Shown one piece after another: positions 3,111 through 24,789 of a stretch of DNA of 64,000 nt (position 1 is the first letter of the stretch; each line of letters begins with the position of its first letter). This DNA is from an uncultured Gammaproteobacteria bacterium (GTDB taxonomy: Bacteria; Pseudomonadota; Gammaproteobacteria; JACCXJ01): the NCBI GenBank assembly GCA_963764725.1, contig CAVXTM010000002.1, forward strand, positions 128,001-192,000. The letters run 5' to 3'. Made by a program: the position numbers and the translations under genes. The notes under the pieces are model-generated. The model was not told the DNA's origin, searched no databases, and was given only the letters and a program-made list of their open reading frames with translations.

Positions 3111-4229
3111 TCACGCCTGCTCGCTGGCAAGAGAGTAACTGGTGCTGCGGCCGCGTTCGGGCCCTCGAACTAGGATGCCTTGTTCAACCAGCTGCAAGAT
3201 GTCACGAAGAGCGGTGTCTTGTGAGCATTTCGCGAGAGCCGCGTATTTGGAGGTGGTCAGCTTGCCTTCAAAGCCATCGAGCAGGCGATTCAGAACGACG
3301 GTTTGACGTTCATTCAGCGGCACGCCCTGCAGGCGCTCCCAGAAGCGCGCTTTGGCCAGCACGCCGGCTAGCATTGACTGCGCGCCGTCGATTGCCCGGC
3401 CCAGGCAAGCCACAAACCACTCCATCCACGGCGTGACGTCAAGCGTCGCCTTCTGCGTGCGCTCAAGGATGTCGTAATACGCGTTGCGCTCCTGGCGGAT
3501 TTGCGTCGACATGCTGTAGAAGCGCTGCGGGCTGTTCTCCGAACGCGCGAGAGCCATATCGGCGATGGCGCGCGCGATGCGGCCGTTGCCGTCATCGAAG
3601 GGATGGATGGTCACGAACCACAAGTGCGCCAGGGCTGCCCTGAACACCTCGTCGATTTCGGGCTTAGCGTTGAACCAGGCAAGGAAAGCAGACATCTCCG
3701 CGGCGAGTCGCGGTGCCGGGACCGCCTCGAAATGGACGCGCTCTCGCCCGATGGGGCCCGAGATGACTTGCATGGGCCCTGTGCTGTCATCGCGCCAGGC
3801 GCCAACGGTGATCTTGGTCATGCCGCTACGGCCGGTCGGAAAAAGGGCGGCATGCCAGGCAAACAATCGCTCCTCGTCGAGCGGCCTGTCGTAATGGCGG
3901 GTTGCGTCGAGCATCATTTCGACAACCCCTTCAACGTGGCGATCGGTGGCAACGAGGCCGCCGATGTCCATTCCGAGACGCCGGGCGATGGACGAGCGAA
4001 CCTGCGCCGCGTCGAGCTTTTCTCCTTCGATCTCGCTGCTTTTGATGACGTCGGAGGTCAGCGTCTGGAGGATGGCCTCCTGGCGGAGGCCGAAACCGAG
4101 AGCTTCCATGTGCCCCGTGAGGCGCCCCTGGCGGTGCCGCACGTCGGCCAAAGAGGCCGCGAGCCGCTCACTGTCCCACCGGAATGAGGGCCAAGCCTCA
4201 AGGTCATGTATATACAATCGCCGCTCCAT
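3111..4229 (-). CDS. Fic family protein (DUF4172-Fic-wHTH type)
   Basis: HPFDDGNGRIAR Fic motif; typical N-terminus (WPSFRWD) and C-terminal KLTTSKYA...DTALRDI. Confidence 0.93.
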   Translation of the reverse strand: MERRLYIHDLEAWPSFRWDSERLAASLADVRHRQGRLTGHMEALGFGLRQEAILQTLTSDVIKSSEIEGEKLDAAQVRSSIARRLGMDIGGLVATDRHVEGVVEMMLDATRHYDRPLDEERLFAWHAALFPTGRSGMTKITVGAWRDDSTGPMQVISGPIGRERVHFEAVPAPRLAAEMSAFLAWFNAKPEIDEVFRAALAHLWFVTIHPFDDGNGRIARAIADMALARSENSPQRFYSMSTQIRQERNAYYDILERTQKATLDVTPWMEWFVACLGRAIDGAQSMLAGVLAKARFWERLQGVPLNERQTVVLNRLLDGFEGKLTTSKYAALAKCSQDTALRDILQLVEQGILVRGPERGRSTSYSLASEQA

Positions 4230-5875: not shown

Positions 5876-6571
5876 ATGCCTCCACGTCACTTGGAACGAC
5901 ACCGCGCTGAACGCATCGGCTGGCTCCGCGCCGCGGTATTGGGCGCCAACGATGGCATCGTTTCCACCGCGAGCCTAGTGCTGGGTGTTGCAGCGGCTGA
6001 TGCAACTCACAGCAACGTATTGATCGCCGGGGTTGCCGGCCTAGTCGCCGGAGCCATGTCAATGGCAGCCGGCGAGTATGTGTCCGTCCACTCACAGGCA
6101 GATACCGAACAGGCAGACATCGAGCGTGAACGCAAGGAACTCACGACGGACGATCCGGGCGAGCGCAAAGAATTGACGGCGATTTACGTCGGTCGAGGGC
6201 TTGATCCTGCGCTTGCGAAACAGGTCGCCGATCAACTCATGGCGCATGACGCGCTCGGCGCACATACCCGCGACGAACTCGGGATCTCCCAGGCTCTTAG
6301 TGCGCGTCCGATTCAGGCTGCTTTTGCTTCGGCTGCCAGCTTCGCTGTTGGAGCAGCTATGCCCATCCTAGTCACCTTATTGGCCCCCGAGACGAGCCTG
6401 TTCTGTCTCGTCTCAGGTACTTCACTCGTTTTCCTCGCGTTCCTAGGTGGGCTGGCTGCGCGCGTCGGTGGAGCGCGTGTGGCATTGGGTGCAATGCGCG
6501 TTACATTCTGGGGTGCGCTAGCCATGGGGTTGACCGCTGGCGTCGGAGCTCTGTTTGGAACGGTCGCGTGA
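5876..6571 (+). CDS. VIT1/CCC1 family iron/manganese transporter
   Basis: GWLRAAVLGANDGIVS and GAMSMAAGEYVSV motifs. Confidence 0.93.
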   Translation: MPPRHLERHRAERIGWLRAAVLGANDGIVSTASLVLGVAAADATHSNVLIAGVAGLVAGAMSMAAGEYVSVHSQADTEQADIERERKELTTDDPGERKELTAIYVGRGLDPALAKQVADQLMAHDALGAHTRDELGISQALSARPIQAAFASAASFAVGAAMPILVTLLAPETSLFCLVSGTSLVFLAFLGGLAARVGGARVALGAMRVTFWGALAMGLTAGVGALFGTVA

Positions 6572-6642
6572 GCGAATCAAACTGCCGCGGCTATTGAGCA
6601 AGGTCCTCTGGTATAAAGATAGATCGTCTAAGCGAGGCGGCC

Positions 6643-7302
6643 ATGACGCCCACACCCAGATTAGCGTTCATCACCGTCGTGGCGACCCTTGCCTATCTCG
6701 GGCTCGCCATCCTTGGCTGGGGCGGATTTGCCGCCTTCTTCTCTCACCCGGCCCTGATTGTCCTTGCGATCGCGCTCTTCGTGCTGTCCGGGGTCGCGCT
6801 CTTCAGTGGCGGAAACCTGAGCCCCGGCGAGCGCGAGGATCGTTCCAACCGTTGGGTCCTCGTACCCTTCGCGCTGATCGGGTTGCTGGACGCCTATCTA
6901 CCGGCCTACACTGACCGGATTGGGTTCTGGACCCTCGACGGCGATGCCATTCGCTGGCTTGGCGTCGTTCTCTTCGCCGCTGGTGGTGTGCTGCGGATCT
7001 GGCCGGTCTTCGTGCTCGGCCGTCGGTTCAGCGGCTTAGTAGCCATCCAGCCCGGGCACACGCTGGTCACGAGCGGTGTCTATGGCGTCATCCGCCACCC
7101 CAGTTATTTGGGGTTGCTCGTCAACTCGCTGGGGTGGGGCCTCGCCTTTCGTTCGGGGGTCGGCGTGCTGCTCACGGCGCTCCTTATCCTGCCACTCCTC
7201 GCGCGCATCCGCGCGGAAGAGAGGCTGCTGCGCACGCAGTTCGGCGCCGAGTACGATGCTTACTGCGCCCGGACGTCACGGCTGATTCCCAGGCTCTATT
7301 GA
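6643..7302 (+). CDS. Isoprenylcysteine carboxylmethyltransferase (ICMT/PEMT) family membrane protein
   Basis: LVTSGVYGVIRHPSYLG and RIRAEERLL...FGAEYDAY motifs. Confidence 0.9.
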   Translation: MTPTPRLAFITVVATLAYLGLAILGWGGFAAFFSHPALIVLAIALFVLSGVALFSGGNLSPGEREDRSNRWVLVPFALIGLLDAYLPAYTDRIGFWTLDGDAIRWLGVVLFAAGGVLRIWPVFVLGRRFSGLVAIQPGHTLVTSGVYGVIRHPSYLGLLVNSLGWGLAFRSGVGVLLTALLILPLLARIRAEERLLRTQFGAEYDAYCARTSRLIPRLY

Positions 7303-7660
7303 GGCGACGGGCCGCCGACGGTCCGGTATGGGTCGGCAAGCGACCGCAAAAACGGTCACAGGAATGGACCGATCAACGCCACCGGCACAGGATAACGTGG
7401 CAGTTTGCGTGCAAGCACTGTAAGAAGGTCGGAACAACTCACGCTGCCAGCACTAAGGCTAAAATAGCCGGCCAGGTGGTCTACATCGTCCTCTGGCACA
7501 ACGACATAGACTCGCGTCAGATCGCGTCGTACATCTTGTGGCGCATATCGCCTGATATAGTCATCAAGGGTCTACCCGAGCGCGTCGGCGCGCTGGCTCA
7601 TCGGAGCAAGGATGATACAATTCGCCCGCAAATTCCGTTAAAGCCCGCAACATCGATCGG

Positions 7661-8173
7661 ATGATACAAGTCCTCAAGAATTTCATTTTCTGGAGCCGTT
7701 GGCTGCAGGCGCCGCTTTACCTGGGATTGATCGTGGCGCAAGGCGTGTACGTCTATCAGTTCATGATCGAGTTGAGCCACCTCGTGGCCAAGGCGGGGGG
7801 TTTGACGGATACCGACATCATGCTTATCGTGCTCGGCCTCATTGATGTCGTGATGATCGCCAATCTCTTGAATATTGTCATCATCGGTGGCTACGAAACC
7901 TTCGTCTCGCGGCTCGCGCTCGAGAGCCACCCGGATCAACCCGAGTGGCTGTCGCACGTCAGCGCTGGTGTGCTCAAGGTTAAACTGGCCACCGCCTTGA
8001 TCGGGATCTCCGCGATTCATCTGCTCAAGACCTTCATCAATGCCGAGCACGTACCCGAAAAGGCAATCATGTGGCAGGTGATCATTCACATGACGTTCGT
8101 ATTCTCGGCCCTCGCAATGGCGTATACCGACAAGGTCATGACCAGTACGGTGTTGATGACGAAAAGGCATTAA
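7661..8173 (+). CDS. TIGR00645/YqhA (UPF0114) family membrane protein
   Basis: SRWLQAPLYLGLI, VIIGGYETFVSRL, LKVKLATALIGISAIHLL. Confidence 0.88.
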   Translation: MIQVLKNFIFWSRWLQAPLYLGLIVAQGVYVYQFMIELSHLVAKAGGLTDTDIMLIVLGLIDVVMIANLLNIVIIGGYETFVSRLALESHPDQPEWLSHVSAGVLKVKLATALIGISAIHLLKTFINAEHVPEKAIMWQVIIHMTFVFSALAMAYTDKVMTSTVLMTKRH

Positions 8174-8449
8174 ACGCACTACGTTTCCTCTTCCGTTTGG
8201 AGAGGGTAGGAGGAGTATTTGATTGGGGAGTTAATAGCAAATATAGGGGAACGCGGGTCGGCGGACCGTGCGCTAGGACCGATCCTGCCGCGCTGGATTT
8301 TCTGATCACCGGGATCTAGGCGTCAACGGTACCGCTCAGCGGCAGGATTATGCGACTCCCTACGTTTTCTTCGAAGGCCCGAGCTAGCACCATCGGCGCT
8401 CTAACTGCGGCGGTGCGCGCCGCACGCTTCGCCGCCTAGGGGCGCACCA

Positions 8450-10288
8450 GTGCGCGCGCTCGAATCGCTCTATCGCTCGGAACGCATCACCGACATCGAT
8501 TTCCACTTTGCCCGGTTGATCGCCCGCTTAGACGGCCGCGAGCGGCCAGAAGTCGCGTACGCGGCGCTGCTGACCAGTACCCTGGCCGGTCAAGGGCATG
8601 CGTGTGCGCGTCTCGAAGCGCATGCGGGCCGCCCGCTCTTGGATGCACCCGAGGCGCCCATTGTCCCCGTGCTCGAGGCGTGGCTCGACGCCTTGCGCGG
8701 TAGCCCGACCGTGGGTGCTCCCGGTGACTATCGTCCTTTGATTCTCGAGGGTGGCACGCGGCTATACCTCTATCGCTATTGGCGCTATCAACAAACGATC
8801 GCGGAGGCTTTAAGCGAGCGCGCCAAGGATGAGGCGGCCGGGGTAAACCTCGACACGCTGCGGCAGGGAATCGAGCGGCTGTTCTCGCACGAGAGCGCCC
8901 TCGATACGGGCGGCCAAAGAGTCGCTGCGGCGGTGGCGGTGCTGCGCAGGCTCTGTGTGGTGAGCGGACCCCCGGGTTCTGGGAAGACCTCGGCGGTGCT
9001 TGGACTCTTGTGCCTGCTTGTGGACCAAACCAACGCGGGCTTGCCGCTTCGGATCGGCTTGGCGGCCCCGACCGGCAAGGCAACGGCGCGCCTCCAGGAG
9101 GCTATGCGCGCGGCCAAGGAACGGCTGCCAATCACACCCGAAATGTTGGGCCGACTACCCAAGGAGGTTGCCACCTTGCACCGCCTGATGGGCGCGAGGA
9201 CGGATTCGGAACGTTTTCGGTATCATCGCGCTCACCCGCTGCCGCTCGATGTCGTGGTCGTGGACGAAGCCTCGATGATCGACTTGGCCTTAATGGCCAA
9301 GTTGCTCGAGGCCTTGCCGCGTTCCGCGCGGATCATTCTTTTAGGCGATCAAGAGCAGTTAGTCTCGGTCGGACCCGGCGCAGTTTTCGGTGACATATGT
9401 TCCGGGCCAAAGGGCTACTCACAGGATTTCGCCGAACGCATCAGCGCGCTGACCGCTGTGGCTGTTCCCCGCGCACCGGCGGGTCCGCCGTTGCGCGACT
9501 CGCTGGTCCGCCTGGAGCACAGTGTCCGATTCCATGCCGAAAGCGGCATCGGCAGGCTCGCCCGTGCCGTCGCGGCAGGCCGTGCCGAGGAGGCCCTCTC
9601 GATCTTACGCAGTGGCGTCGCGGGCATTGAATGGCGCGAGGCGCGAGATGCGCGCGCCATGATCCGGCAGCAAACACAGGCCATCGTTGACGGCTATGCC
9701 GATTACCTGCGATTGGTCCGCGAGGGCGCCGAGCCCGAGCGCGTTCACTCGGCTTTCAACGAATTTCGGATCTTGTGCCCGCAGCGTGCCGGCCCGGCGG
9801 GGGTTGAGGCCGTTCAGACCGCCATCGTGGAGGTCCTCGGCACGGCGAGATTGATCGAAGCGCGGAGGACCTGGTACCTCGGCCGCCCGGTGATGGTGAT
9901 CCGCAATCACTACGGACTCAAGCTCTTTAACGGGGACATCGGAATCGTCCAGCGCGACCCTAGGGGCGGCCGCGAGCTTAAGGTTTGCTTCATAAGCCAG
10001 CAAGGTTCCTCGCGCACGTTCAGTCCAGAAAGCTTACCCGGCCACGAGACGGTATTCGCGATGACGGTGCATAAAAGCCAAGGATCCGAGTTCGGGCGGG
10101 TGGTGCTGATCTTGCCGGAGCTTGACTCGCCGCTGTTGACACGCGAGCTCATCTATACCGCGATCACGCGGGCCAGGAGAGGGCTAGCGATTTGGAGCGT
10201 CGAACGCGCCTTCATCCAGGCCATCGAGCGCACGCTCCGGAGATCGTCCGGACTGCGTGAATTGCTATGGGGCGGTGCGATAACGTAG
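8450..10288 (+). CDS. recD: Exodeoxyribonuclease V alpha subunit
   Basis: RLYLYRYW, GPPGSGKT, APTGKA, VVVDEASMID, AMTVHKSQGSEF, RELIYTAITRA. Confidence 0.96.
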   Translation: MRALESLYRSERITDIDFHFARLIARLDGRERPEVAYAALLTSTLAGQGHACARLEAHAGRPLLDAPEAPIVPVLEAWLDALRGSPTVGAPGDYRPLILEGGTRLYLYRYWRYQQTIAEALSERAKDEAAGVNLDTLRQGIERLFSHESALDTGGQRVAAAVAVLRRLCVVSGPPGSGKTSAVLGLLCLLVDQTNAGLPLRIGLAAPTGKATARLQEAMRAAKERLPITPEMLGRLPKEVATLHRLMGARTDSERFRYHRAHPLPLDVVVVDEASMIDLALMAKLLEALPRSARIILLGDQEQLVSVGPGAVFGDICSGPKGYSQDFAERISALTAVAVPRAPAGPPLRDSLVRLEHSVRFHAESGIGRLARAVAAGRAEEALSILRSGVAGIEWREARDARAMIRQQTQAIVDGYADYLRLVREGAEPERVHSAFNEFRILCPQRAGPAGVEAVQTAIVEVLGTARLIEARRTWYLGRPVMVIRNHYGLKLFNGDIGIVQRDPRGGRELKVCFISQQGSSRTFSPESLPGHETVFAMTVHKSQGSEFGRVVLILPELDSPLLTRELIYTAITRARRGLAIWSVERAFIQAIERTLRRSSGLRELLWGGAIT

Positions 10289-10345
10289 TCTTGGCGATCG
10301 AGTCGCCCAGGGGACGATGCGATTTCTTGAGGTGAGGATGCAATA

Positions 10346-11293
10346 TTGAGTGACTTCAGTTTCAAAGCGGGGGCGTGTCCCGACCTAGCCAATACGGGCC
10401 GGAGCGGCATCGCGACGGCTCTCCTGAGCTTGCTCGCGGCGAGTCCCGACCCGCTGCCGTTGTCCAAGCTAAAGGCAGGTCTGCGTAAGCGTCATGATCT
10501 ATCTGTCCAGGAGCTAGAGGCGCTGGTGGCGAGCCACCTCGGCCTCGGAACCGTGTTCCGCTACCCGCCGCTCCGCGGCGAGGGCTACCGCTACTGGGAC
10601 CGCGACCGCGGCCATTACCTCGACACCCTCATCGAACGCGAGCTTCACGCCGCCGCGCTTCCCATCCACACGCTTCGAGGCCGCGTGGCCAGACGCCTGG
10701 GGGACGCTTCCGAGGCGGAGGTGCGAGAGCGTATTGAGGGACTGCTGCGCGTGGGGAGGCTGCATGAGCTACCGCGCGGCCCGGGCAGCCGTTCGGCGCG
10801 CCTGAGCGCCAAGCCGCCCGATCCCAAAGACTATCTCAGTGGTACGATTCAGCGCTTGGTTCAGGCCATCGAGGAGGAGAGCCTCAGGCTCGCGGCTTTC
10901 GGGGTCCCGTGCGCGGCGACCTTCGCTGCGGCGCGTATCTTATTGGAAGAGAGCGTGCTTTACGGCCGGCCGGCACTGGCCGGAGTCCCGCCGCACATGG
11001 ACAGTGCCGTCACGGAACAGGATCTCGAGCACCAGATCTTGGAGCAATTGCGGCGCCTGAGCGCGGATCTTCGCCACGGCGGGTTGGTCTCTACCCGCGA
11101 GCTACGCGGCACGCAACCACGCTTCACGCACGAGCACGCGGCTTTCGACCAGGCGCTCCTGCGGCTCGCGAAAGACGGAAGGGTATGGTTGTTTCGCCAC
11201 GATTTTCCAGCGAGCCTCAGCGAATCGGAGCGCAAGGCGATGGTCACGGATGGCCGCGGCAATTACTATAACGGGATCTCGTTCAAAGAATAA
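10346..11293 (+). CDS. Hypothetical protein, probably tandem winged-helix domains
   Basis: Three helix-helix-wing-like segments; C-terminal FDQALLRLAKDGRVWLFRHDFPASL...DGRGNYYNGI; 8 nt upstream of the ATPase. Confidence 0.65.
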   Translation: MSDFSFKAGACPDLANTGRSGIATALLSLLAASPDPLPLSKLKAGLRKRHDLSVQELEALVASHLGLGTVFRYPPLRGEGYRYWDRDRGHYLDTLIERELHAAALPIHTLRGRVARRLGDASEAEVRERIEGLLRVGRLHELPRGPGSRSARLSAKPPDPKDYLSGTIQRLVQAIEEESLRLAAFGVPCAATFAAARILLEESVLYGRPALAGVPPHMDSAVTEQDLEHQILEQLRRLSADLRHGGLVSTRELRGTQPRFTHEHAAFDQALLRLAKDGRVWLFRHDFPASLSESERKAMVTDGRGNYYNGISFKE

Positions 11294-11301
11294 CGCCCAT
11301 C

Positions 11302-13296
11302 ATGGATATCATCAATCCCTTTGCCCAGTCCATCGTCACCGATGCCTGGCAAGCGCCGCAATCCGATGTACCGATGATCCACGCCGGAGTGTTCGAGCTT
11401 TGCTGTGAGGTGCTCGAACAGGTGCGCCGATCCGGGGGCAGCCGGTCCGTGCTCCTGCACGGGCTACCGGGGAGCGGCAAAACCCATCTGCTCGCGCGCG
11501 TTCGCACCAATCTCAACGGCACGCCGAATGACATGGCTGCGACGGTGCCCGTGCCCCTCCCCCCGAACGTATTGTTCATCGCCGTGCGCCTGCGCGCCGG
11601 CGCCAGGATGCTATGCCGCCATCTCCGCCGTACCCTTGCGACCGATCTGTTTCGCCCCACGCGCCTAGGGATGTCGCAACTCGAGCAATTACTCCTCTAC
11701 CGCTTGGCGCAGTTTCTCAAGGACCGGAAAAAAGCCCAGAAATGGTGGATCGATCTGCGCCAGCCCCAAAAGCCGCGGCGCTGGTGGTTGTTCGGAAAGA
11801 CCGATGAGGCCGGACGCGCGCAGCAGGAAATAGAAGCCATGATCGAGCACCTCGAGGAGCAAGCGGCTCTCGGCAGAAACCTCAGTGCGATCCTGCGTCA
11901 CTTGGCCTTGGGGCGCCATCGGCGGAATGTACGCGATTGGTTGCACGATGGGCTGCTACCGGACGGCGCAATGCGGGATCTGGGCTTGGTGCCGCCGCCC
12001 GAGGACGAGGATCCCGAGGAGCAGGCGCTCGATATGGTCTGCGCCGTGAGCCGGCTCGCGGATTCCCATACACCGCTGGTGCTCTGTTTCGACCAGGTGG
12101 AAGCGTTGCAAACGTCCCCCGACGACATGGAGGGTCTGTATGCTTTCGGCCGGATGGTCAGCTCGCTTCGCGACAAGACGCGCAACACCTTGTTGCTCTC
12201 CTGCGTGCAGACCGCGTTTCTGGACAAGCTCGATGAGATCATTCGGGGCGCCGACATGGACCGGCTGGCGGAAAAGGCCGGTCTGCTCAAACCGCTCTCC
12301 GCGGAGGAGGCGCAACGGCTGATCCCGGTGCGTTTGGATTCCGCGCCGGCGGTGGCCAAGATGCGCAAAGGTCAATCGAATAAGCTCTGGCCTCTCAAAC
12401 CGAATCGCATCGCGGAATTCATGGACGGGAATCCCGCCTGTACCCCGCGCCAGTTGATTTCGTTTTGCGAGGACGAGTTCGAGAAATGGCGCCACGGCCA
12501 AGCGCAGCCGGCGGCCTCCGTAGAGGAATTCTTGACGCTCCAATACGCTATCGAGTACGGGCAAGCGCTGCAATCGAGTCATCCCCATAAGATGGACGAA
12601 ACCTTGGCGCACGGATTACCGCTGGTACTCGCGCTCTTGGGGCGCAGCAAGCAGGTCGTGGACGCCGGTCACAAATACGCCGATCTCATCTTCGAGTACG
12701 CTGCCGGGCGGCTGTACATCAGTTTTTGCAACCAGGTCGGTAACCCCTTGACTGCGCGCCTGGCGAAGCTTCGCGAGGCGGTGGAAAGGGGGCGGATCGC
12801 CAATCTGGTCGTGGTTCGGGATAGCCGCCTGGCAATCTCGCAGCATGCCAAGAAAGCACAGGAACATTTGGATGCGCTCACGCAACGCGAGGTGACTTTG
12901 CTGCGCCCCTCCGCGGAGGGATTGGCGGCGATCGAAGCATTCCGCAGCCTGCTCTCGGATGCCAAGGCGGGGGACCTCGCTAAGCGCGGGGAGGGGATCG
13001 GCCCGGGCGCCGTGGAAGAATGGTTTAAAGCGCATCTACCGCCGTCCGTGGCCGATTTGGTGGAGGGTCTCACGCCCGAGCGGCGGTTGAGCGGACGCGA
13101 TGCGATTTACGATGAGCTGTTGGAATTGGTGCAACAGGAACGGATCGTTCGCTTAGACGAGGCCGCCGAACGGCTGCATCGGGATGCCGAAATGATAGCC
13201 GCCTGTGCCGCGGGCCATATCGATCAGTTCGGGATCTTGCAGGGACCGCCCTTGGTGATCTTCGAGAAGGTAGCCGCGGCGGACAGCGTCGCCTAG
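11302..13296 (+). CDS. AAA+/P-loop ATPase with C-terminal extension
   Basis: Walker A GLPGSGKT, Walker B LVLCFDQVE, putative Arg finger MDRL, sensor-2-like TPRQL. Confidence 0.85.
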   Translation: MDIINPFAQSIVTDAWQAPQSDVPMIHAGVFELCCEVLEQVRRSGGSRSVLLHGLPGSGKTHLLARVRTNLNGTPNDMAATVPVPLPPNVLFIAVRLRAGARMLCRHLRRTLATDLFRPTRLGMSQLEQLLLYRLAQFLKDRKKAQKWWIDLRQPQKPRRWWLFGKTDEAGRAQQEIEAMIEHLEEQAALGRNLSAILRHLALGRHRRNVRDWLHDGLLPDGAMRDLGLVPPPEDEDPEEQALDMVCAVSRLADSHTPLVLCFDQVEALQTSPDDMEGLYAFGRMVSSLRDKTRNTLLLSCVQTAFLDKLDEIIRGADMDRLAEKAGLLKPLSAEEAQRLIPVRLDSAPAVAKMRKGQSNKLWPLKPNRIAEFMDGNPACTPRQLISFCEDEFEKWRHGQAQPAASVEEFLTLQYAIEYGQALQSSHPHKMDETLAHGLPLVLALLGRSKQVVDAGHKYADLIFEYAAGRLYISFCNQVGNPLTARLAKLREAVERGRIANLVVVRDSRLAISQHAKKAQEHLDALTQREVTLLRPSAEGLAAIEAFRSLLSDAKAGDLAKRGEGIGPGAVEEWFKAHLPPSVADLVEGLTPERRLSGRDAIYDELLELVQQERIVRLDEAAERLHRDAEMIAACAAGHIDQFGILQGPPLVIFEKVAAADSVA

Positions 13297-13300
13297 CCTT

Positions 13301-14362
13301 ATGGCTGTGTATTTGACCATGCCGCAGGTTCGGGCCACGTTGCTTGAAAGCGGCGTCGAGCAGCACCCGCCGACACAGCTTCTGGCGCGCCTATTTGTCG
13401 AGGTGATGGATGAGTTGCTCGGGCAGGGGCGGAGCCCGCACTGGACGGCGATCTTGGGCGATGAAGATCTGGATCGGGAACGGTGGCAACAGAGGCTCAT
13501 CGAGCACGCCTATCGGCGGTGCGTCGCGCCGAGATTGCTGCGGCAGCGAGCCGCATTGGATCCCGCCGCCAGGGAGGTGTGTCTGTTTTGGGAAGCGGTC
13601 CAAAACCTCTGTACCTGGAGCGTGGACGCGCTTTGGGAGCGTTACCGCGCGCGGGGACGCGTGCCGGAGGCCGGACTATTCAGTAAAATCGGCTTGGCGA
13701 AGGATCTGGAGTTACACGAACCCGAGTGGACCGATGCGGTCCGTATCACGGATATCCGGGAAGCGCTTTGGCTCACGCCGGGCGCCGAATCCTATTGCGC
13801 AATCGAGCTTTGTCTCAATCCGGACGGGGAAGGCATCGAGCAGGCGTGTCTCTATCGCCTGTTGACACACGCATCCTACCCGGCGCCGCGCGCACGCAAG
13901 GGGGTGCTGCGGCTGGTCTCCTTCTCGCCGGCGCGCCAGGAAACGGCGATCGACATAGCACGGTTGGATAGGCTGCAGCGGCATGTGAAATACTTGATCG
14001 GACGCGCCGCCGGCGTGCTGCCGACGGGGTTGCCGGTCAGCGCGGACCCTGCAAGCGCGGCGCATAACTATGTGAACCTGGGCAAGATGCTGGTCGAGAT
14101 CCTGAGAAACTTTGGGATCGAGGCCAGCGTCGCCGGCATGCCCGCGATTGAACACGGGAAGGTGCAGTTCTTGATAGAGCTTCCGCCGGGTATTCGGGTC
14201 ACCGGGCCGGAAGCGCTCGCGGACGATATCAAGCAACGCTTGCGGCTTAAGACCCCGCCGCTGATCGAACACGTTGCCGGGCATTTATTCGTTAGTCTCG
14301 AGGTTCGCGCACGCCCGATCTTCTTTTTCTGGCCGACGGGCTGGACGAGCAGGGCGGAATGA
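13301..14362 (+). CDS. Hypothetical protein: degenerate PD-(D/E)XK-like region plus FtsK-alpha-like C-terminus, no ATPase
   Basis: VRITDIREALW...YCAIELC...EQACLY; LVEILRNFGIEASV...PPGIRV...LADDIKQRLRL...PLI; no Walker A. Confidence 0.55.
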   Translation: MAVYLTMPQVRATLLESGVEQHPPTQLLARLFVEVMDELLGQGRSPHWTAILGDEDLDRERWQQRLIEHAYRRCVAPRLLRQRAALDPAAREVCLFWEAVQNLCTWSVDALWERYRARGRVPEAGLFSKIGLAKDLELHEPEWTDAVRITDIREALWLTPGAESYCAIELCLNPDGEGIEQACLYRLLTHASYPAPRARKGVLRLVSFSPARQETAIDIARLDRLQRHVKYLIGRAAGVLPTGLPVSADPASAAHNYVNLGKMLVEILRNFGIEASVAGMPAIEHGKVQFLIELPPGIRVTGPEALADDIKQRLRLKTPPLIEHVAGHLFVSLEVRARPIFFFWPTGWTSRAE

Positions 14363-14387
14363 ATTCGTCGGATCGCCGATCACACCT
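14335..14387 (+). repeat. 53-bp junction repeat, copy at 16926-16978; partial third copy near 24505-24536
   Basis: 47/53 identical by direct alignment; contains the stop of the 13301 ORF and the last sdhE codons/stop on the opposite strand. Confidence 0.85.
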
Positions 14388-14452
14388 TGTCTGCTGTAGC
14401 TATGGATCGAGTCGAGTTGACTGGCGCAATACCGTCGGCTCGACCCGGTCCA

Positions 14453-14504
14453 GGCTAACCCGCACGCCGCTTTATGGCGCGTCCGGTGGATCGAGAAGTT
14501 AGCT
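14453..14504 (-). other. Short, degenerate attC-like site
   Basis: Minus strand AGCTAAC...CCACCGGACGCGCC...GTTAGCC; carries the stop of the upstream antitoxin remnant. Confidence 0.5.
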
Positions 14505-14765
14505 GAATAACCGCCCGTGACGGAAGGCGTTTGGAAGAAACACGGTGGGCGGATTTGCGGTTTGCGTTGTGTTGCTTGAGAGACGCGATGGCTTTTCGAT
14601 AAAACGGCCCGTGACAAATTTGTGAAGTACGCTGGCAATGAGAGTTTGATAAGGGACCCCCTCCTCCAGGGCACGCGTCTGGATATCCATCAGGTTGGGG
14701 GATGAGAGTCAGATATTTACCCGCCGGTTCTTGATAAGCGTCGCCCGAGCAGCGTCCCGAAACGT
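14499..14765 (-). pseudogene. BrnA/CopG-like antitoxin remnant
   Basis: RDAARATLIKNRRVNI*LSSPNLMDIQTRALEEGVPYQTLIASVLHKFVTG, with an internal stop. Confidence 0.7.
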
Positions 14766-15186
14766 CTCAAGCCCGGGCCTTCGAAAGACCGATGGATTTT
14801 GAGCTCATCTTAGATCCGCTCGGTGCGCAGGCTGTAAATGGAGGTAGCGCAGGCGCTCCCGCACGTGATCGAGCAGGTTTGTTGGCGGCGGGTGTGCTAA
14901 AAACTCCCTCGCGTGCATTCGTTGGCATCGTTGAGTTCCCAATCAAGCGCTTATATGATGACCGCCGTGATTATGCACCAGTCCGTGGATTGGGTTAGGG
15001 GTTAAACACCTATTGGTGTCGAATTCTGAGTTGGTCGGCGCGCAGCGCCGGGGCCACGGCTTTTAGAACGGGAGATGGGCGTGGATAGGATCACAGGCTT
15101 CGATAACGGCAATCGAGCGGCGCTAAGCGCGCGCCAACCAACGGAGCGCGAGTTGTCTCACGTCGAGTTGTCCGGCGCTGCGCGCC

Positions 15187-15308
15187 GTCCAACTCTCGTT
15201 CGAGCGGCACCGCGGCGCTGCGCTTGCGGCTTCGCCCCTATGACTCGGTCGAAAGACTTCGTCTTTCTCTCGCGTCAGGGGCGCCGCTCAACTCGCGCTC
15301 CGTTAGGC
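15187..15308 (+). other. attC recombination site (long type)
   Basis: GTCCAAC...imperfect palindrome...GCCGCTCAACTCGCGCTCC-GTTAGGC directly before the cassette gene RBS. Confidence 0.7.
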
Positions 15309-15331
15309 GCAAACCTAAAGGAGAATTGCAA

Positions 15332-15922
15332 ATGATCGGTACGTTTTCGTCCGCGGACAGCGCCCTGTTACTCATCGACCATCAAGTCGGGACGATGAAG
15401 CTCATCAAGAACATCCCGCTTGATGTGGTCAAACGAAACACGCTGGCTCTTGCCAAAACAGCCAAGATTTTGAACATCCCTGTCGTCCTTACGAGTTCGC
15501 AGGAGCAGAATGTTCAGGGGCCATTGCTTCCGGAACTCGAACAAATTCTTCCTGAGGCGTTTGCTGCCAGGGTTCAGCGAGCCGGAATTGTTAACGCTTG
15601 GAGTGATCCGCACTTCAAAAAGGCCGTCGAAGCGACAGGTCGCAGGAATCTCATCATGGCCGGTGTGACCACCGATGTGTGTTTGGTGTATCCGGCAATT
15701 AGTGCCTGTCGCGAGGGCTACCAAGTACAGGCAGTTATGGACGCTTCAGGGTCGCCATACGAACTTTCCGAAGATATGTCGCGGCGGCGCATGGAACGCG
15801 AGGGAGTAGTGCTTACCGCAACAAACACGCTCATGGCTGAACTCGCTCAGGATTGGAGTCGGCCAGAAGGTGGCCAATTGCTTGGCATACTGTTTCAAGA
15901 CGTACTTCCACCAATCGCCTAA
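15332..15922 (+). CDS. YcaC-like isochorismatase-family cysteine hydrolase (gene cassette)
   Basis: LLLIDHQVG and GVTTDVCLVYPA; cassette ends GTTAGGCG / CGCCTAAC are complementary. Confidence 0.9.
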   Translation: MIGTFSSADSALLLIDHQVGTMKLIKNIPLDVVKRNTLALAKTAKILNIPVVLTSSQEQNVQGPLLPELEQILPEAFAARVQRAGIVNAWSDPHFKKAVEATGRRNLIMAGVTTDVCLVYPAISACREGYQVQAVMDASGSPYELSEDMSRRRMEREGVVLTATNTLMAELAQDWSRPEGGQLLGILFQDVLPPIA

Positions 15923-15987
15923 CAAGGCGCTCCACCGGACGGCAATTCCGCTGCGCTCCAGTGCCGCCGGTGAGCGTTGCGTTAGCC
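15917..15987 (+). other. attC site (71 bp)
   Basis: GCCTAACAAGGCGCTCCACCGGACGGC...GCCGCCGGTGAGCGTTGC-GTTAGCC, canonical palindromic attC layout. Confidence 0.9.
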
Positions 15988-15994
15988 ATAACAC

Positions 15995-16651
15995 ATGCTT
16001 AATACTATTTTCCAAAAACGCTTCACTGAACTAAAAGCTCAGTTCGAAGCAATGCCTTTCCACTCAAATGCTGACGGCATGTCTGGGACTCATGTTCCAT
16101 CTGGCGTTTGGCAGCAATGGGCTACAAGTGCGCAAAACCTTCTTCTTACGGTCTTTGGTAAGGAGTCACCTCACTACGCGAACTTTGTAGACGCGTTCCA
16201 AAAAAGCACCGGTTACGCCCACAGTGTTAATGTGCTCAAAGGCATTTTCCCTAGCGCGAAAGATGACTTTGAGGGTGGATACGTTTTTGATGTTGATCTC
16301 CGGGTGTCCGGGGAGGTCTTCGGGGATTTCGTGGCCATGGCAAAGCATGCCTTATCAGAAGGCTATAAAGATGTCGCAGCGGTGCTAGCCTGCGCTGCGT
16401 TGGAAGACACCCTTAAGCGATTCTCAGCGGCAAATGGTCTCGATGTTGGTGAGAAGTCTATGCAAGAAGTAGTCGGCGCATTGAAGTCAAAGGGGCTGGT
16501 GTCCGGGGCCCAGAAGTCTTTGTTGGATACTATGCCAAGAATTCGAGACTACGCCATGCACGCAAACTGGGAAAAGATCTCGGCGCCAGACGTTAGTAGC
16601 GTTATTGGCTTTGTTGAGCAGTTTCTTCTTTCAAAGTTCAGTCATGGCTAA
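15995..16651 (+). CDS. DUF4145-like HEPN-motif protein (gene cassette)
   Basis: AAVLACAALEDTLK and RDYAMH (RxxxxH); cassette ends GTTAGCCAT / ATGGCTAAC are complementary; following attC is truncated. Confidence 0.75.
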   Translation: MLNTIFQKRFTELKAQFEAMPFHSNADGMSGTHVPSGVWQQWATSAQNLLLTVFGKESPHYANFVDAFQKSTGYAHSVNVLKGIFPSAKDDFEGGYVFDVDLRVSGEVFGDFVAMAKHALSEGYKDVAAVLACAALEDTLKRFSAANGLDVGEKSMQEVVGALKSKGLVSGAQKSLLDTMPRIRDYAMHANWEKISAPDVSSVIGFVEQFLLSKFSHG

Positions 16652-16705
16652 CAAGCCGATCAACACGGACAGCAAGTAAGCGCCGCTCCTTCGTCGCTCT
16701 GCTTC

Positions 16706-16821
16706 ATGATTATCCTCGGCGCCATGATGCGTAAGCTCGTCCATGTCACCTTCGGCGTCCTCAAGTCCGGAACACCTTTCAATCCCACACTTCATCTCAC
16801 TTGACACCGATAACAGTATCT
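16706..16821 (+). mobile_element. IS110-family remnant (transposase C-terminus and right end)
   Basis: MIILGAMMRKLVHVTFGVLKSGTPFNP* followed by TTGACAC...AACAGTATCT. Confidence 0.7.
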
Positions 16822-16827
16822 ACATCT

Positions 16828-16899
16828 AAGTCGTAGCGAGAGAGGGTGTGTGAGTCTATTGGAGTCGTTTTGTTTCAACATTCAAGACGTGAGTATCTA
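16828..16899 (+). repeat. ~72-bp dispersed non-coding repeat, second copy 24296-24366
   Basis: Shared GAGTCT...GTCGTTTTGTT..CATTCAAGACGT..GTATCTA. Confidence 0.7.
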
Positions 16900-16985
16900 A
16901 AACATGGTGTGGCGGCCTTACCCGAGACGGGTTGGACGAGCAGAGCGGAATGATTTCGCCGAAGCGCCGATCACACCTCGCCGGA

Positions 16986-17191
16986 GAGGTTGTGAATTAA
17001 TCGTCGCGAGCAACCCCGAGCGCCAGGACCGTTTCGCCGGGAGCGAAACGGCGCATAAGCCCCGAAGGGGCGAGTCTCAAGGATGAGACGAGCAACCGCA
17101 GAGCGAGCGACGAGACATATCAATTCGATAGGCGAGCGAGCGAGCACGCGACGCAGCGATCGGGATGCGCAGCAGATTAATTCACAACCTC
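16986..17191. mobile_element. MITE (206 bp) inserted in the 3' end of sdhE copy 1
   Basis: TIRs GAGGTTGTGAATTAAT / ATTAATTCACAACCTC; flanks GGA / TGA; the empty site CGCCTGAGGTC is visible near 24538. Confidence 0.85.
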
Positions 17192-17425
17192 TGAGGTCGA
17201 TCGGATCTCATCGATCAGCTTCAAGCATCTCGGATCATTGGGTTGCGATCTTCCCAGCAACCACGCCATGATGTCCTGGTCCGCTTGGTCGAGCAGTTCG
17301 ACGAAGCGGAGTTGATCGGCTGCGGCAAGCTGGTGGTAACGGAGATCCAGGAATCTTTCAAGGATGATATCGAGCTCGCGCATCCCGCGCCGGCAACGCC
17401 ATCGGAGTCGGTCGATCGAAGTCAC
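17177..17425 (-). CDS. sdhE: SdhE (succinate dehydrogenase assembly factor 2), duplicate copy; last residues come from the MITE
   Basis: LRWRCRRGMRELD motif. Confidence 0.8.
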   Translation of the reverse strand: MTSIDRLRWRCRRGMRELDIILERFLDLRYHQLAAADQLRFVELLDQADQDIMAWLLGRSQPNDPRCLKLIDEIRSTSEVVN

Positions 17426-17440
17426 GAACTTAACCGGGTC

Positions 17441-18004
17441 TCACAGCGCTCGCGTTAGCAGCAATTTCTTGATCTCCCCGATCGCCTTCGCCGGGTTGAG
17501 GCCTTTGGGGCAGGCCTTGGTGCAATTCATGATCGTATGGCAGCGGTACAGGCGATACGAATCTTCGAGCGTGTCGAGGCGCTCGCCCGTATTCTCGTCG
17601 CGGCTGTCGACGATCCAGCGGTAGGCCTGAAGCAGAATAGCAGGTCCGAGAAAGCGATCACCGTTCCACCAGTAACTCGGACAACCCGTCGAGCAACAGG
17701 CGCAGAGAATACATTCATACAGCCCGTCAAGTTGGGTGCGGTCTTCCTTGGTTTGCAAACGCTCGCGAGCGGGCGACCGGTGTGTCCGCCTGTAACCAGG
17801 GTTTGATCGAGGCATATTGGGCATAAAAATGCGTCAGATCGGGCACCAGATCCTTGATCACCGGCAGGTGCGGCAGGGGGTAGACGGAAACCTCCATCTC
17901 GGCGTCATCGATGGCCTTGGCGCACGCTAAGGTATTGGATCCATCGATATTCATCGCACACGAGCCACACACGCCCTCGCGGCAGGAGCGCCGGAAGGTC
18001 AAGG
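17441..18004 (-). pseudogene. sdhB: Duplicated 3' part of sdhB, 5'-truncated and frameshifted
   Basis: Near-identical to 24790-25352; 1-bp insertion near 17776 (GGCGACCGG vs GGCGCCGG). Confidence 0.93.
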
Positions 18005-18360
18005 CTGGCCGGCTCATGCTGGAAGCCCTGGCGGAGCTGGAAAAGAAGGGTGAAAGTTTTGCCTTCGAGACGACATTATCCGGCGTGACTTACGCGCGCC
18101 GCATTCCCCGCTGGCGAGCCGCCGGTTATCATGTCACGCTGTATTTTCTTGCCTTGCCGTTGGTTGAGCTGGGCATCGCACGAGTCGCGGAACGTGTGCG
18201 GCAGGGCGGTCATCATGTACCCGATAGTGTTGTCCGGCGCCGGTTTGTGTCGGGCCGACGGAACTTTGACCGCATATATCGTGATCTGGTGGACGCCTGG
18301 GCGCTTTACGACAATTCCGGCGCGGAGCCGGTTTTGATGGACTGGAAAGAAAAGCCATGA
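18001..18360 (+). pseudogene. Zeta-toxin-like P-loop ATPase, 5'-truncated (Walker A missing)
   Basis: KAGRLML...[10 protein letters not shown]...RVAERVRQGGHHVP...YDNS. Confidence 0.8.
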
Positions 18361-19357: not shown

Positions 19358-22051
19358 ATGAACCGCCACGTCAACGCCATCGCCGGGCGTCTGAGCCTGC
19401 GCCCGCCTCAGCGGCGCTCGCTGGAGATTCTTGATCGGATCACGGAGATCGTGCCGCCGAGAAGAGGCGCCGACGTTCAGGCCGCGCTGGACGCAGTCCG
19501 CAGCGAGTTCCCGACCGTTACGGAGTTTGAGCGTGATTTTCCGTCGCTCTGCTTTGCGTTGGCGACGGGCGTCGGCAAGACGCGGCTCATGGGTGCGTTC
19601 ATCAGCTATCTGCATCTGGCGCACCGCATCAACAATTTCTTTGTGATGGCGCCCAACCTGACGATCTACAACAAGCTGATTACGGACTTCACGCCCAACA
19701 CACCCAAGTATGTGTTCAAGGGCGTTGCCGAACTTTCAGTGAACCCGCCGACAGTGATTACCGGCGACAACTATGACCAGCGCGACCCGGCCAGCGGGAT
19801 GCTGTTCGGCGGTGTGCGCATCAACATTTTCAACATCTCCAAGATCAACTCCGAAGTGCGTGGGGGCAAGGCGCCTCGTATCAAGCGACTGTCCGAATAC
19901 ATCGGCGAGAGTTACTTCGACTATCTGGCGGGTCTGCCCGATCTGGTGCTGATCATGGATGAGTCGCACCGCTATCGGGCTTCGGCCGGTGTGCGGGCGA
20001 TCAACGAACTAAAGCCAATCCTGGGTCTGGAACTGACGGCCACGCCATTCACAGAAGGTGTCCGCGGCGCGGTGCCGTTCAAGAACGTCATCTTCGACTA
20101 TCCGCTCGGCAAGGCGATGGCGGATGGCTTTGTTAAGGAGCCCGCGGTGGTCACGCAGAAGAACTTTGATCCGCGGCAGTTCTCTGCGGAGCGGCTGGAG
20201 CAGATCAAGCTTGAAGACGGCATCAGGCTGCACGAAAGCGTAAAAGTAGAGTTGGAAACCTATGCCCGGCAGAACGACCAGCCCATCGTGAAACCTTTCG
20301 TACTCGTCATCGCCCGCGACACGACACACGCCGGCCAATTGCTGCAACTGATCCAGTCAGACAAGTTTTTTGAGGGCCGCTACCGGGCAAAGGTCATCCA
20401 GGTGGATTCCAGCAAGACCGGCGCGGAAGAAGATGAGATGATCCAGCGGCTATTAGCCATCGAGAAGACCGAAGAGCCGACGGAGGTTGTGATTCACGTC
20501 AACATGCTCAAAGAAGGCTGGGACGTGACCAACCTCTACACGATTGTCCCGCTGCGCGCGGCGAATGCGCGCACTCTCATCGAGCAGTCCATCGGCCGCG
20601 GCCTGCGCCTGCCCTATGGGCAGAAAACGGGGGTGAATGCGGTTGATCGCCTCAACATCGTGGCCCACGACAGGTTCCAGGAAATCATTGATGAAGCCAG
20701 CAGGCCGGGCTCGGTGATCCATCTGCAGAAGGTGATCCTGGATCCGACCAGTGATTTGCAGAAGACGGTCACGGTGGTGGCACAGTCCAATGTCCTGCAC
20801 CAGATCGGCAAACCCGCCGAAGCGGGCGCAACCCCGGCCCCGGGCGCGAAGACGCCTGCGCCAGTGTTCAAGACCGAGGCCGAGCAACAGGTCGCGCAAA
20901 TCACCTATGAGGTGATCAAGCGGCACGAGTCGTTGCCGGGTTCTGCGGCGCTGCTCAAGCGCGACGTGCAGGCCGCGATGATTAGGGAGGTGGCGGCGGC
21001 CTACAAGCCGGTGCAACAGGAGCTGGAAGGCATTTCCAAGCCGCCGGACATAAAGGGCATCGTTGCCAGGACCACGGAGCTTGTTGTCGGACAGACCATT
21101 GATATTCCCCGCATCCTTGTGGTGCCGAAAGGCGAGGTGACGGTCGGCTTCAAGCCGTTCAAGCTCGATCTATCAGGGATCAACTATCAACCCGTCACGC
21201 GGGACCTGCTGATCCAGCACCTGCGAACGCGCCAGCAGGACACGTTGAGTGCACTTAACGCTCAGTACCGTGAGCAGCGCTTGGAGGACTACATCGTCCG
21301 CGCACTGGTGGACTTCGACGATATCTCTTACGACGATCACGCAGAGCTTCTTTATGACCTTGCCGGTCAGGTTACGCGACACTTGCAGGGATATCTCTCC
21401 GAAGACGACACCCGCAACGTGCTGCAGTACCACGAGCGGCAGATTTCCGAATTCATCCACGCGCAAATGCAGCCGCACTATTGGGAAAAGGCTGCGGGCT
21501 ACGAGGTGGTCGTTACAAAGGGATTCACGACCCTGAAACCCTCCGCGTTCACGGCGGTCGCTGCGGACAAGGTCCAGGACGTGCATCAGGCCGTCGCAGA
21601 CAAGGGCAAGATCGGCCAGCTCGTCTTTGGCGGGTTCAACCGGTGTCTCTATCCTTTCCAAAAATTTCATTCCGACGCTGAGCGCAAGATGGCGATCATC
21701 CTGGAACGGGAAGCGCTGAAGTGGTTCAAGCCCGCAAAGGGCCAGTTCCAGCTCTTCTACAAATTGGGCGCCAGGCAGAACGAGTACCAGCCCGACTTTG
21801 TCGCGGAGACAAAGGACGAGATCTTCATGCTAGAACCCAAAGCTAAGAACGAACTGACCAGCGATGAGGTTTTGGCGAAGAAGGCCGCCGCCCTGCGCTG
21901 GTGCGAACTTGCAACCGCGCACAGCAAAGAGAATGGTTGCATAAATTTGGGGTTAAGCGGTGGGAAATGGCGTCGGACACAGGGTTTCAGTGAGTTTTGT
22001 GCTTTTCGCTGGATCTCACTGCTGGTGAAATCCAGCCCGTCAGAAAGATAG
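19358..22051 (+). CDS. Type III restriction enzyme Res subunit; native C-terminus apparently replaced from ~21945 by IS1380 sequence
   Basis: LATGVGKT, DESH, LTATP, MLKEGWDV, EQSIGRGLR, YQPDFVAET...EPK. Confidence 0.88.
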   Translation: MNRHVNAIAGRLSLRPPQRRSLEILDRITEIVPPRRGADVQAALDAVRSEFPTVTEFERDFPSLCFALATGVGKTRLMGAFISYLHLAHRINNFFVMAPNLTIYNKLITDFTPNTPKYVFKGVAELSVNPPTVITGDNYDQRDPASGMLFGGVRINIFNISKINSEVRGGKAPRIKRLSEYIGESYFDYLAGLPDLVLIMDESHRYRASAGVRAINELKPILGLELTATPFTEGVRGAVPFKNVIFDYPLGKAMADGFVKEPAVVTQKNFDPRQFSAERLEQIKLEDGIRLHESVKVELETYARQNDQPIVKPFVLVIARDTTHAGQLLQLIQSDKFFEGRYRAKVIQVDSSKTGAEEDEMIQRLLAIEKTEEPTEVVIHVNMLKEGWDVTNLYTIVPLRAANARTLIEQSIGRGLRLPYGQKTGVNAVDRLNIVAHDRFQEIIDEASRPGSVIHLQKVILDPTSDLQKTVTVVAQSNVLHQIGKPAEAGATPAPGAKTPAPVFKTEAEQQVAQITYEVIKRHESLPGSAALLKRDVQAAMIREVAAAYKPVQQELEGISKPPDIKGIVARTTELVVGQTIDIPRILVVPKGEVTVGFKPFKLDLSGINYQPVTRDLLIQHLRTRQQDTLSALNAQYREQRLEDYIVRALVDFDDISYDDHAELLYDLAGQVTRHLQGYLSEDDTRNVLQYHERQISEFIHAQMQPHYWEKAAGYEVVVTKGFTTLKPSAFTAVAADKVQDVHQAVADKGKIGQLVFGGFNRCLYPFQKFHSDAERKMAIILEREALKWFKPAKGQFQLFYKLGARQNEYQPDFVAETKDEIFMLEPKAKNELTSDEVLAKKAAALRWCELATAHSKENGCINLGLSGGKWRRTQGFSEFCAFRWISLLVKSSPSER

Positions 22052-24291: not shown

Positions 24292-24529
24292 ATTGAAGTC
24301 ATAGGGCGAGCGGGCGTGCGAGTCTGTTGAGGTCGTTTTGTTCAGCATTCAAGACGTTCGTATCTAGCATTCAACGAGTCGGCGCGGGAGACGTGTAGCG
24401 GCGAAGGCCAGCACTGCAAGTATATCTTTCCGCTTCAGATCTGCGCAACAGGCTATCTCCGGAGAATTAAACGCCGCGATTCGATGTTACCACACCCCGC
24501 TCCCTGCTGGACCAGCCGCGAATCGCCGA

Positions 24530-24775: not shown

Positions 24776-24789
24776 GAGCTTAACGGGTC

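Follow-up and report, generated by a model that had tools for sequence, protein, structure and literature searches.

The window analyzed here is a 64,000-nucleotide (nt) stretch of contig CAVXTM010000002.1 (assembly GCA_963764725.1) from an uncultured gammaproteobacterium, and our subject is a trio of open reading frames (ORFs) lying between its positions 10,346 and 14,362. ORF1 encodes a triple winged-helix protein, ORF2 an Orc/Cdc6-type AAA+ ATPase, and ORF3 a degenerate PD-(D/E)XK nuclease domain followed by an FtsK-alpha domain. Relatives of this trio occur in many phyla, where the third gene usually continues into an FtsK motor and keeps its nuclease motifs, and the window copy has lost both the motor and the lysine of the ExK motif. 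On balance, we favor the interpretation that the trio encodes an ATPase complex that binds DNA, has lost its effectors, and was domesticated from a capture system that combined an Orc/Cdc6-type ATPase, a restriction endonuclease (REase), and an FtsK-type pump.

Gene 3 stops at the motor boundary

In most relatives, gene 3 encodes a protein of 610–700 amino acids (aa) with PDDEXK_1, FtsK_alpha, and FtsK_SpoIIIE domains; FtsK_SpoIIIE was detected in all 7 long proteins tested (E-values of 1e-28 to 1e-37) and PDDEXK_1 in 6 of the 7 (1e-5 to 2e-8). The window ORF3 aligns to residues 1 to ~360–400 of these long forms and stops at the start of the motor, its C-terminal end, FFFWPTGWTSRAE, falling where the relatives begin their FtsK domain. 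The initial annotation, made from the DNA letters alone, had compared ORF3 to the portion of nuclease-FtsK fusions that precedes the motor, and this proved to be an exact match, with the full fusion present in the relatives. FtsK_alpha (PF17854, 7.3e-5; score 23.3 bits, cutoff 22.9) is the only Pfam domain that reaches its threshold in ORF3, and it was also found in 6 of 8 relatives tested; PDDEXK_1 gave no match to the window protein at E ≤ 0.1. A tblastn search with 16 long homologues found no motor remnant downstream in the window, and elsewhere in the genome long gene 3 matches only one frame, of 766 aa on contig C1, with 39% identity across residues 274–608 (the alpha and motor regions); we read this frame as the cellular FtsK.

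The long forms keep the nuclease motifs FH, GxAD, ExK, and QAxLYH. In the short-form group to which the window belongs, the first three are replaced by FV or FI, DIRE, and ELC, the window ORF3 itself having V for the FH histidine, E for the GxAD aspartate, and ELC for ExK. A short-form group 47% identical to this one has FH, HI(P/R)E, and ALR, and two further short proteins, P0097 and P0098, have ELR and ELS at the third motif. That the ExK lysine is gone from all four short lineages, replaced by different residues, argues that the catalytic site of the short form is no longer maintained. With both the motor and this lysine lost, the window complex can probably neither pump nor cut DNA, and the working nuclease unit that the initial annotation had envisaged at this locus is not borne out.

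A cassette spread over many phyla

A word-based search recovered 94 homologues of ORF2, none of them informatively named, and an exhaustive profile search of 1.84 billion representatives, with E ≤ 1e-30 as the limit, returned 745 clusters defined at 50% identity. Scanning species-representative genomes with a pattern yielded at least 49 loci, and 31 of them (L001–L031) are clear relatives among the matches listed. With the window proteins as tblastn queries, and likewise among the matches listed, ORF1 lies directly upstream in 27 of these 31 loci and ORF3 directly downstream in 26. Beyond the 27, the upstream genes of L014 and L029 cluster with ORF1, leaving L002 and L024, in which no ORF1 was seen; the five loci with no ORF3 match are those where the contig ends inside ORF2 (L002 and L007) or where other genes lie downstream (L010, L015, and L022). 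The hosts belong to Planctomycetota, Acidobacteriota, Myxococcota, Verrucomicrobiota, Thermodesulfobacteriota, and Gammaproteobacteria, the gene order is identical in the metagenome loci L061–L073, and no conserved fourth gene stands beside the trio among the loci compared. In Minicystis rosea (L008; complete genome CP016211.1, around 9.593–9.598 Mb, locus coordinates 5987–11921), one frame of 1314 aa encodes both the ORF2 homologue and the nuclease-FtsK protein. Three genes recurring in identical order in many phyla are more than a chance arrangement, and the co-occurrence of their homologues is established in genome loci and metagenome contigs alike; the trio constitutes a genuine cassette that has been transferred widely. 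At the M. rosea locus, the gene immediately upstream of the ORF1 homologue encodes a Dam-family methyltransferase (TIGR00571, 9.4e-78), the only methylase among the neighbors tested at 33 loci.

A three-gene insert that stands alone between housekeeping genes unrelated to it, in so many phyla, could also be a selfish mobile or segregation module in both its long and its short form, with ORF2 and the REase acting as TnsC/TnsA-like or partition-like components. The phrase “mobile gene neighborhoods,” used in the computational description of such systems (PMC10853773), and an attachment-like repeat at the 3′ end of ORF3 would both suit this idea. However, 105 neighboring ORFs at 33 long-form loci yielded no transposase or integrase domain, no terminal repeats surround the trio, and the repeat bounds the cargo downstream of the trio rather than the trio itself, and we regard a selfish module as very unlikely. 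A more specific Tn7-like reading, with analogues of TnsC and TnsA, was dropped because no transposase was found in the neighborhoods. These 105 ORFs are mostly housekeeping genes, in a tally made with no statistical control, so a defense-island argument is unavailable for the family as a whole; genes of defense, toxin-antitoxin, or modification type adjoin few long-form loci (Dam at L008, Uma2/PIN at L030, TIR at L062, and Fic at L069).

The ATPase and the winged-helix protein

The initial assignment of ORF2 to the AAA+ ATPases is supported and can be narrowed to the Orc/Cdc6 kind by Pfam and Foldseek. Pfam returns AAA_16 (6.9e-9) and AAA_22 (5e-8), and the best Foldseek matches to an AlphaFold2 model (predicted local distance difference test, pLDDT, 86.8; predicted template modeling score, pTM, 0.85) are RdrA (8hr8, 2.9e-5), and Orc1/Cdc6 (2v1u, 3.2e-5; 2qby and 1fnn, ~1e-4), with ORC4 also among them; a profile search of PDB sequences returned ORC4, Cdc6, and DnaI at weak E-values. 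The motifs quoted in the initial annotation (Walker A GLPGSGKT at residues 54–61, Walker B LCFDQVE at 261–267, DRL at 320–322, and TPR at 381–383) are all present and fall at conserved alignment positions: across 25 homologues, no variation occurs at G54, G57, G59, K60, T61, D264, Q265, E267, or R383, and almost none at S58 or R321. ORF2 resembles RdrA of the RADAR system and archaeal Orc1/Cdc6 in combining an AAA+ core that bears a helical insert with a C-terminal winged helix. Unlike them, it shows only low TM-scores (0.19–0.44) and no significant sequence match, and the window trio has neither an RdrB-like deaminase partner nor an origin context.

Between its lid and its C-terminal winged helix-turn-helix (wHTH), ORF2 contains an alpha/beta domain that is a candidate inactive REase. 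In the model, residues 407–535 follow the order helix-strand-strand-strand-helix-strand, then the wHTH at 600–655, and the domain has a conserved D, with CNQ where ExK would be expected. A Pfam tally over 31 members gave scattered single matches only, one of them to REase_MTES_1575 at E = 0.15, and an Atlas search with residues 400–664 returned unnamed clusters only. Aligned to the ORF3 nuclease by hhalign, the domain scored a probability of 5%, with the D and CNQ/ExK strands in register.

For ORF1, the proposed three tandem winged helices were each located in the protein, separated by a helical hairpin before the third (Table 1). ORF1 is the fastest-evolving member of the trio, with a ratio of nonsynonymous to synonymous substitution rates (dN/dS) of 0.40–0.50. 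It has no PADLOC match, and FokI, SspB, and DndG did not appear in the PADLOC, PDB-sequence, or fold search lists, though a relation to them may exist.

The short form is maintained by selection

The short form of the trio is maintained under purifying selection and is not decaying. Among relatives 92–94% identical in ORF2, Nei-Gojobori dN/dS is 0.10–0.18 for ORF3 and 0.13–0.22 for ORF2, compared with 0.28–0.33 for recD, the housekeeping gene just upstream. In short ORF3s that are only 47–49% identical, the position of the stop and the FFWP(T/K)GW tail are unchanged, and the most distant short form (36% identical) ends in FFWPGL. The loss of the motor domain and of catalytic residues, together with the broken genes in the surroundings, could suggest that ORF3, perhaps along with the rest of the trio, is a functionless pseudogene remnant in decay. 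Against this stand the low dN/dS of ORF3, an identical or nearly identical frame length with a constant stop and tail in lineages that share less than half of their residues, and an ORF3 match in every genome of the order that we searched, and we consider a pseudogene extremely improbable.

All 15 genomes searched from the window's order (one family, three genera; 6 of 6 among the public ones) carry ORF2 and a short ORF3, a count drawn from related metagenome-assembled genomes, 9 of them unpublished, that are kin rather than independent samples. One of these, G007, has its ORF3 match divided between two frames. Across the class, 5 of 401 sampled genomes match, and 4 of the 5 belong to the window's family. 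Between genera, ORF2 is 65–67% identical, above the 44–49% of recD, and this higher identity together with the presence of ORF2 and a short ORF3 in all 15 genomes makes the trio look like a core gene set rather than a patchily distributed defense locus. In a quick maximum-likelihood tree, the short-form ORF2s form one clade with 100% support nested among long-form lineages. For ORF2 lineages at 53–56% identity (P0007, P0009–P0011, and L060), the contigs stop short of gene 3. Genomes of genus g2 (G002, G003, G004, and G005, the first three unpublished; an example is locus L106) carry the short trio and, separately, one or two long-form copies whose ORF2 is 32–39% identical and whose gene-3 frames are 621–758 aa long, so effector-less and complete versions coexist in the same genomes.

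A complex model of ORF2 residues 400–664 with ORF3 supports docking of the ORF3 stub on the C-terminal wHTH of ORF2. The score was 0.72 (individual runs 0.72, 0.01, and 0.76) against 0.35 for the best control, and 116 of 157 solved complexes reach the mark used for such scores, as do 2 of 215 mismatched pairs; contact agreement between runs was at least 3% and partner pLDDT at least 68. In the modeled interface, ORF2 residues 614–659, within the wHTH, would meet the conserved helices of ORF3 at residues 67–97, in agreement with the natural fusion of ORF2 and gene 3 in Minicystis. Metatranscriptome contigs give a weak hint that the trio is expressed: those of run X9 cover 11185–14370 at ~93% identity, and those of run X8 cover small parts of ORF2 and ORF3 at 99–100%. 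The hint is weak because DNA carry-over is possible, and contigs from these RNA runs hold no information on transcript ends, strand, or level, with runs X1 and X5 possibly being DNA.

Relation to described systems

The trio was initially put forward as an undescribed unit, but its architecture is already contained in the “HerA/FtsK capture systems” that Rakesh, Aravind, and Krishnan predicted by computation (NAR 2024, PMC10853773). As laid out there, the class consists of an Orc/CDC6 ATPase into which an inactive REase is inserted and which ends in a wHTH, an active REase, and a HerA/FtsK ATPase; one subset has an N-terminal FtsK-alpha domain on the HerA/FtsK motor, captured from cellular FtsK, and a protein that evolves fast and contains 2–4 wHTH domains accompanies the REase-FtsK-alpha-HerA/FtsK protein. 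The authors proposed that the Orc/Cdc6 ATPase localizes the restriction apparatus on DNA, with the HerA/FtsK motor catching and pumping the DNA of invaders, and this group took up the theme again in 2026. Our long-form relatives match this domain inventory and its partition into genes, and they are placed in the class by architecture alone. In the window, an ATPase of the Orc/CDC6 clade is what Foldseek, the PDB profile search, Pfam, the conserved Walker A and B motifs, R321, and R383 all point to, and the FtsK-alpha domain of the subset is found in ORF3. The window copy differs from the class in having no HerA/FtsK motor, no ExK lysine, and probably no counterpart of the active REase that the long relatives have, and in being fixed in an order instead of patchy.

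There is no dedicated model for the trio or for its long-form relatives in PADLOC 2.0, NCBIfam 20, or Pfam, and the initial statement that the trio could not be matched to a named system holds for the first two of these collections. All matches of the long-form relatives fall below cutoffs and are to generic models (FtsK, EccC, and the C-terminus of SspH). In PADLOC, ORF2 has three weak matches (IetA, Avs2, and mad8; E = 0.03–0.04) and ORF3 has one, to SspH (E = 0.022), over its alpha domain. None of the three proteins has a match in PHROGs.

The DndFGH and SspFGH systems share part of this architecture. The FtsK-alpha and motor portion of long gene 3 resembles the C-terminus of SspH (1e-43 to 1e-58), and a theme in which a REase followed by a HerA/FtsK motor is joined by a triple-wHTH partner (DndG) is presented in PMC10853773 as shared with DndFGH and SspFGH. 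In contrast, ORF1 and ORF2 have no match to DptF, DptG, SspF, or SspG at E ≤ 0.1, gene 3 does not have the large N-terminal helicase, target recognition domain, and inactive-methylase part of DndH, and no dnd or ssp modification cluster lies near the trio. Cellular FtsK has the alpha domain in common with ORF3, and long gene 3 is 39% identical to the contig C1 frame that we read as FtsK, but Pfam finds no FtsK gamma domain in the long forms and the window ORF3 lacks the motor.

A proposed path from capture system to DNA-binding complex

If the long-form relatives work as predicted, then the fast-evolving triple-wHTH ORF1 and the Orc/Cdc6-type ORF2 of the ancestral system would have brought the machine to particular DNA, and its gene 3 would have combined a hexameric FtsK-type pump with a RecB/Cas4-like PD-(D/E)XK nuclease to reel in that DNA and cut it. 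In the lineage of the window, gene 3 was cut exactly at the boundary between alpha domain and motor, and the ExK lysine was lost as well. An intact ATPase, a wHTH protein, and a stub of nuclease fold and FtsK-alpha remain, kept across the sampled order, and these may have been exapted as an ATP-dependent complex that binds or senses DNA. Its output would then have to come through something else, perhaps a host nuclease or motor, or perhaps plain occupancy or regulation.

The same genes could instead be a fully working anti-phage or anti-plasmid system, with ORF3 as a nuclease effector driven by the ORF2 ATPase. The three intact ORFs, their purifying selection, and the intact ATPase motifs would be expected of such a system, and the variable DNA downstream carries genes of defense type (Type III Res and a PDC-M63A-like gene in the window, DrmD-like and RmrA-like genes at L053). 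We nevertheless think it unlikely, given a catalytic lysine replaced in 4 of 4 short lineages by different residues, the absence of the FtsK motor, and an occurrence throughout the order's 15 genomes, in which ORF2 is more conserved between genera than recD.

Several points weigh against our interpretation of the trio as an effector-less derivative of a capture system. A search of the full-text literature found no experimental test of the capture class, and the ancestral defense role is itself a prediction. The genomes in which the short form is fixed are kin, the docking model came out at 0.01 in one run out of three, and the inactive REase identity of ORF2 residues 407–535 was not confirmed by Pfam, Atlas, or hhalign. 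Loss of the lysine makes loss of nuclease activity probable, short of proof, and a positive defense-island signal is absent around the 33 long-form loci.

A tentative extension of this interpretation, possible but doubtful, is that one gammaproteobacterial order has domesticated a defense-derived machine, made up of an Orc/Cdc6 ATPase, a triple-wHTH protein, and a nuclease-dead FtsK-alpha stub with no motor, into a core factor of its chromosome. This factor would load onto specific DNA and hand it to host enzymes such as RecBCD or FtsK, or it would organize the adjacent integration hotspot. If that were true, it would illustrate clearly how an immune system can become a housekeeping factor for DNA transactions. 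The window variant would in any case represent a capture system after loss of both effectors that was retained and not purged, and thus a tractable example of defense-gene exaptation. For annotators, it cautions that an intact “defense-like” operon need not be a working defense system. Cultured sources of the full-length cassette exist in Minicystis rosea DSM 24000, in which the ATPase and the pump are fused, and in Aporhodopirellula aestuarii.

Locus layout and the position beside recD

The initial description of three intact, co-oriented ORFs directly after recD was accurate. The ORF list places recD and the trio all on the + strand, with gaps of 57 nt between recD and ORF1, 8 nt between ORF1 and ORF2, and 4 nt between ORF2 and ORF3. 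The identity of recD is clear from TIGR01447 (534.8 bits against a cutoff of 310) and its RecD_N, AAA_19/AAA_30, and UvrD_C_2 domains, and it is the sole copy in the 4.2-Mb genome. Coordinates of these genes, their domains, and features of the downstream DNA are collected in Table 1.

Table 1. Features of the trio, its upstream neighbor recD, and the DNA downstream (window coordinates)
Feature	Residues	Position (nt)	Strand	Description
recD		8450–10288	+	612 aa; RecBCD alpha subunit, housekeeping; context, outside the cassette
ORF1		10346–11293	+	315 aa, TTG start; triple winged-helix protein
ORF1 winged helix 1 (wH1)	~17–87	10394–10606	+	
ORF1 winged helix 2 (wH2)	~86–157	10601–10816	+	
ORF1 helical hairpin	160–206		+	
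ORF1 winged helix 3 (wH3)	~224–313	11015–11284	+	
ORF2		11302–13296	+	664 aa; Orc/Cdc6-type AAA+ ATPase
ORF2 AAA+ core	28–330	11383–12291		~150-aa helical insert after strand 2
ORF2 lid	334–398			
ORF2 alpha/beta domain	407–535	12520–12906		Candidate inactive REase
ORF2 C-terminal wHTH	600–655	13099–13266		
ORF3		13301–14362	+	353 aa; degenerate PD-(D/E)XK and FtsK-alpha
ORF3 degenerate PD-(D/E)XK domain	~1–240	13301–14020	+	
ORF3 FtsK-alpha domain	256–335	14066–14305	+	
53-nt repeat		14335–14387	+	Spans the last 8 codons and stop of ORF3
Repeat copy 2		16926–16978		88.7% identical; still encodes TGWTSRAE and a stop (blastn within the window)
Repeat partial copy 3		~24519–24559		
Type III restriction Res gene		19358–22051		PADLOC REase_III, 2.7e-214
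DDE transposase		21997–23487		

This arrangement had suggested a functional link to recD, and the trio could be a RecBCD accessory that is co-transcribed with recD and takes part in processing DNA ends, RecBCD supplying the lost motor and nuclease. The short same-strand gap, in which a simple promoter and terminator scan found nothing informative and no terminator-like site, would allow for co-transcription. The adjacency itself is seen on the public metagenome contigs L007, L052, L053, and L054 and in the genus-g1 genomes G007, G010, G011, and G012 (G011 and G012 unpublished), and synteny with close relatives extends from ~8286 to 14387–14502 and then breaks. However, recD is beside the trio in none of 4 short-form loci at 65–70% identity (L001, L055, L056, and L058) and in none of the long-form loci examined, and genus g2 has recD on contigs other than that of the trio. 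Because the adjacency is confined to the window's own genus, we read it as an inherited position and not as a sign of shared function; a RecBCD accessory is, in our judgment, quite unlikely, and the initial suggestion of a functional link does not hold up.

The C-terminal part of recB (UvrD_C and PDDEXK_1) lies at 9–1385, 7 kb upstream of recD, and between the two are a SoFic-like Fic protein gene (3111–4229; PADLOC SoFic, 3.4e-40) and DUF998, VIT1, ICMT-like, and UPF0114 genes. In two relatives, L052 and L053, the gene ahead of recD is instead ccdB.

The variable island downstream

The 53-nt repeat at the end of ORF3 looks like an attachment site, of the kind typical for the 3′ end of an anchor gene, and it would mark the edge of a variable island. 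The cargo between the first two copies (14388–16925) consists of an antitoxin-like remnant, an isochorismatase, and a DUF4145 gene, with no integrase inside. The first of these is a 63-aa ORF on the − strand (14499–14690) that resembles the C-terminal part of a CopG/BrnA-type antitoxin, and it looks like a remnant because L052 has a longer ORF at the same place, with a weak CopG_antitoxin match (2.4e-4).

Farther along, an 830-bp duplication, 96.6% identical (17191–18017 and 24541–25367) and containing sdhE and the 3′ part of sdhB, flanks an insert of ~6.5 kb with a zeta-toxin-like ORF, a DUF6932/PDC-M63A-like ORF, the Type III Res gene, and the DDE transposase gene. The initial remark that most accessory genes of the region are broken is partly borne out by genes that we noticed without a systematic survey, namely the sdhB copy at 17441–18017, which is split over two frames, and a C-terminal fragment of sdhA at 25659–26327. 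The sdhA fragment adjoins a reverse-transcriptase gene (27085–28251; RVT_1, 3.5e-39), and the sdh operon may be interrupted here by a group II intron or an element of retron type. At L053, a DrmD-like SNF2 helicase gene (11294–14200; PADLOC DrmD, 9.1e-202) comes right after ORF3, and an IrrE/RmrA-like HTH-peptidase gene (16319–17985) lies further downstream with a DUF4411 gene.

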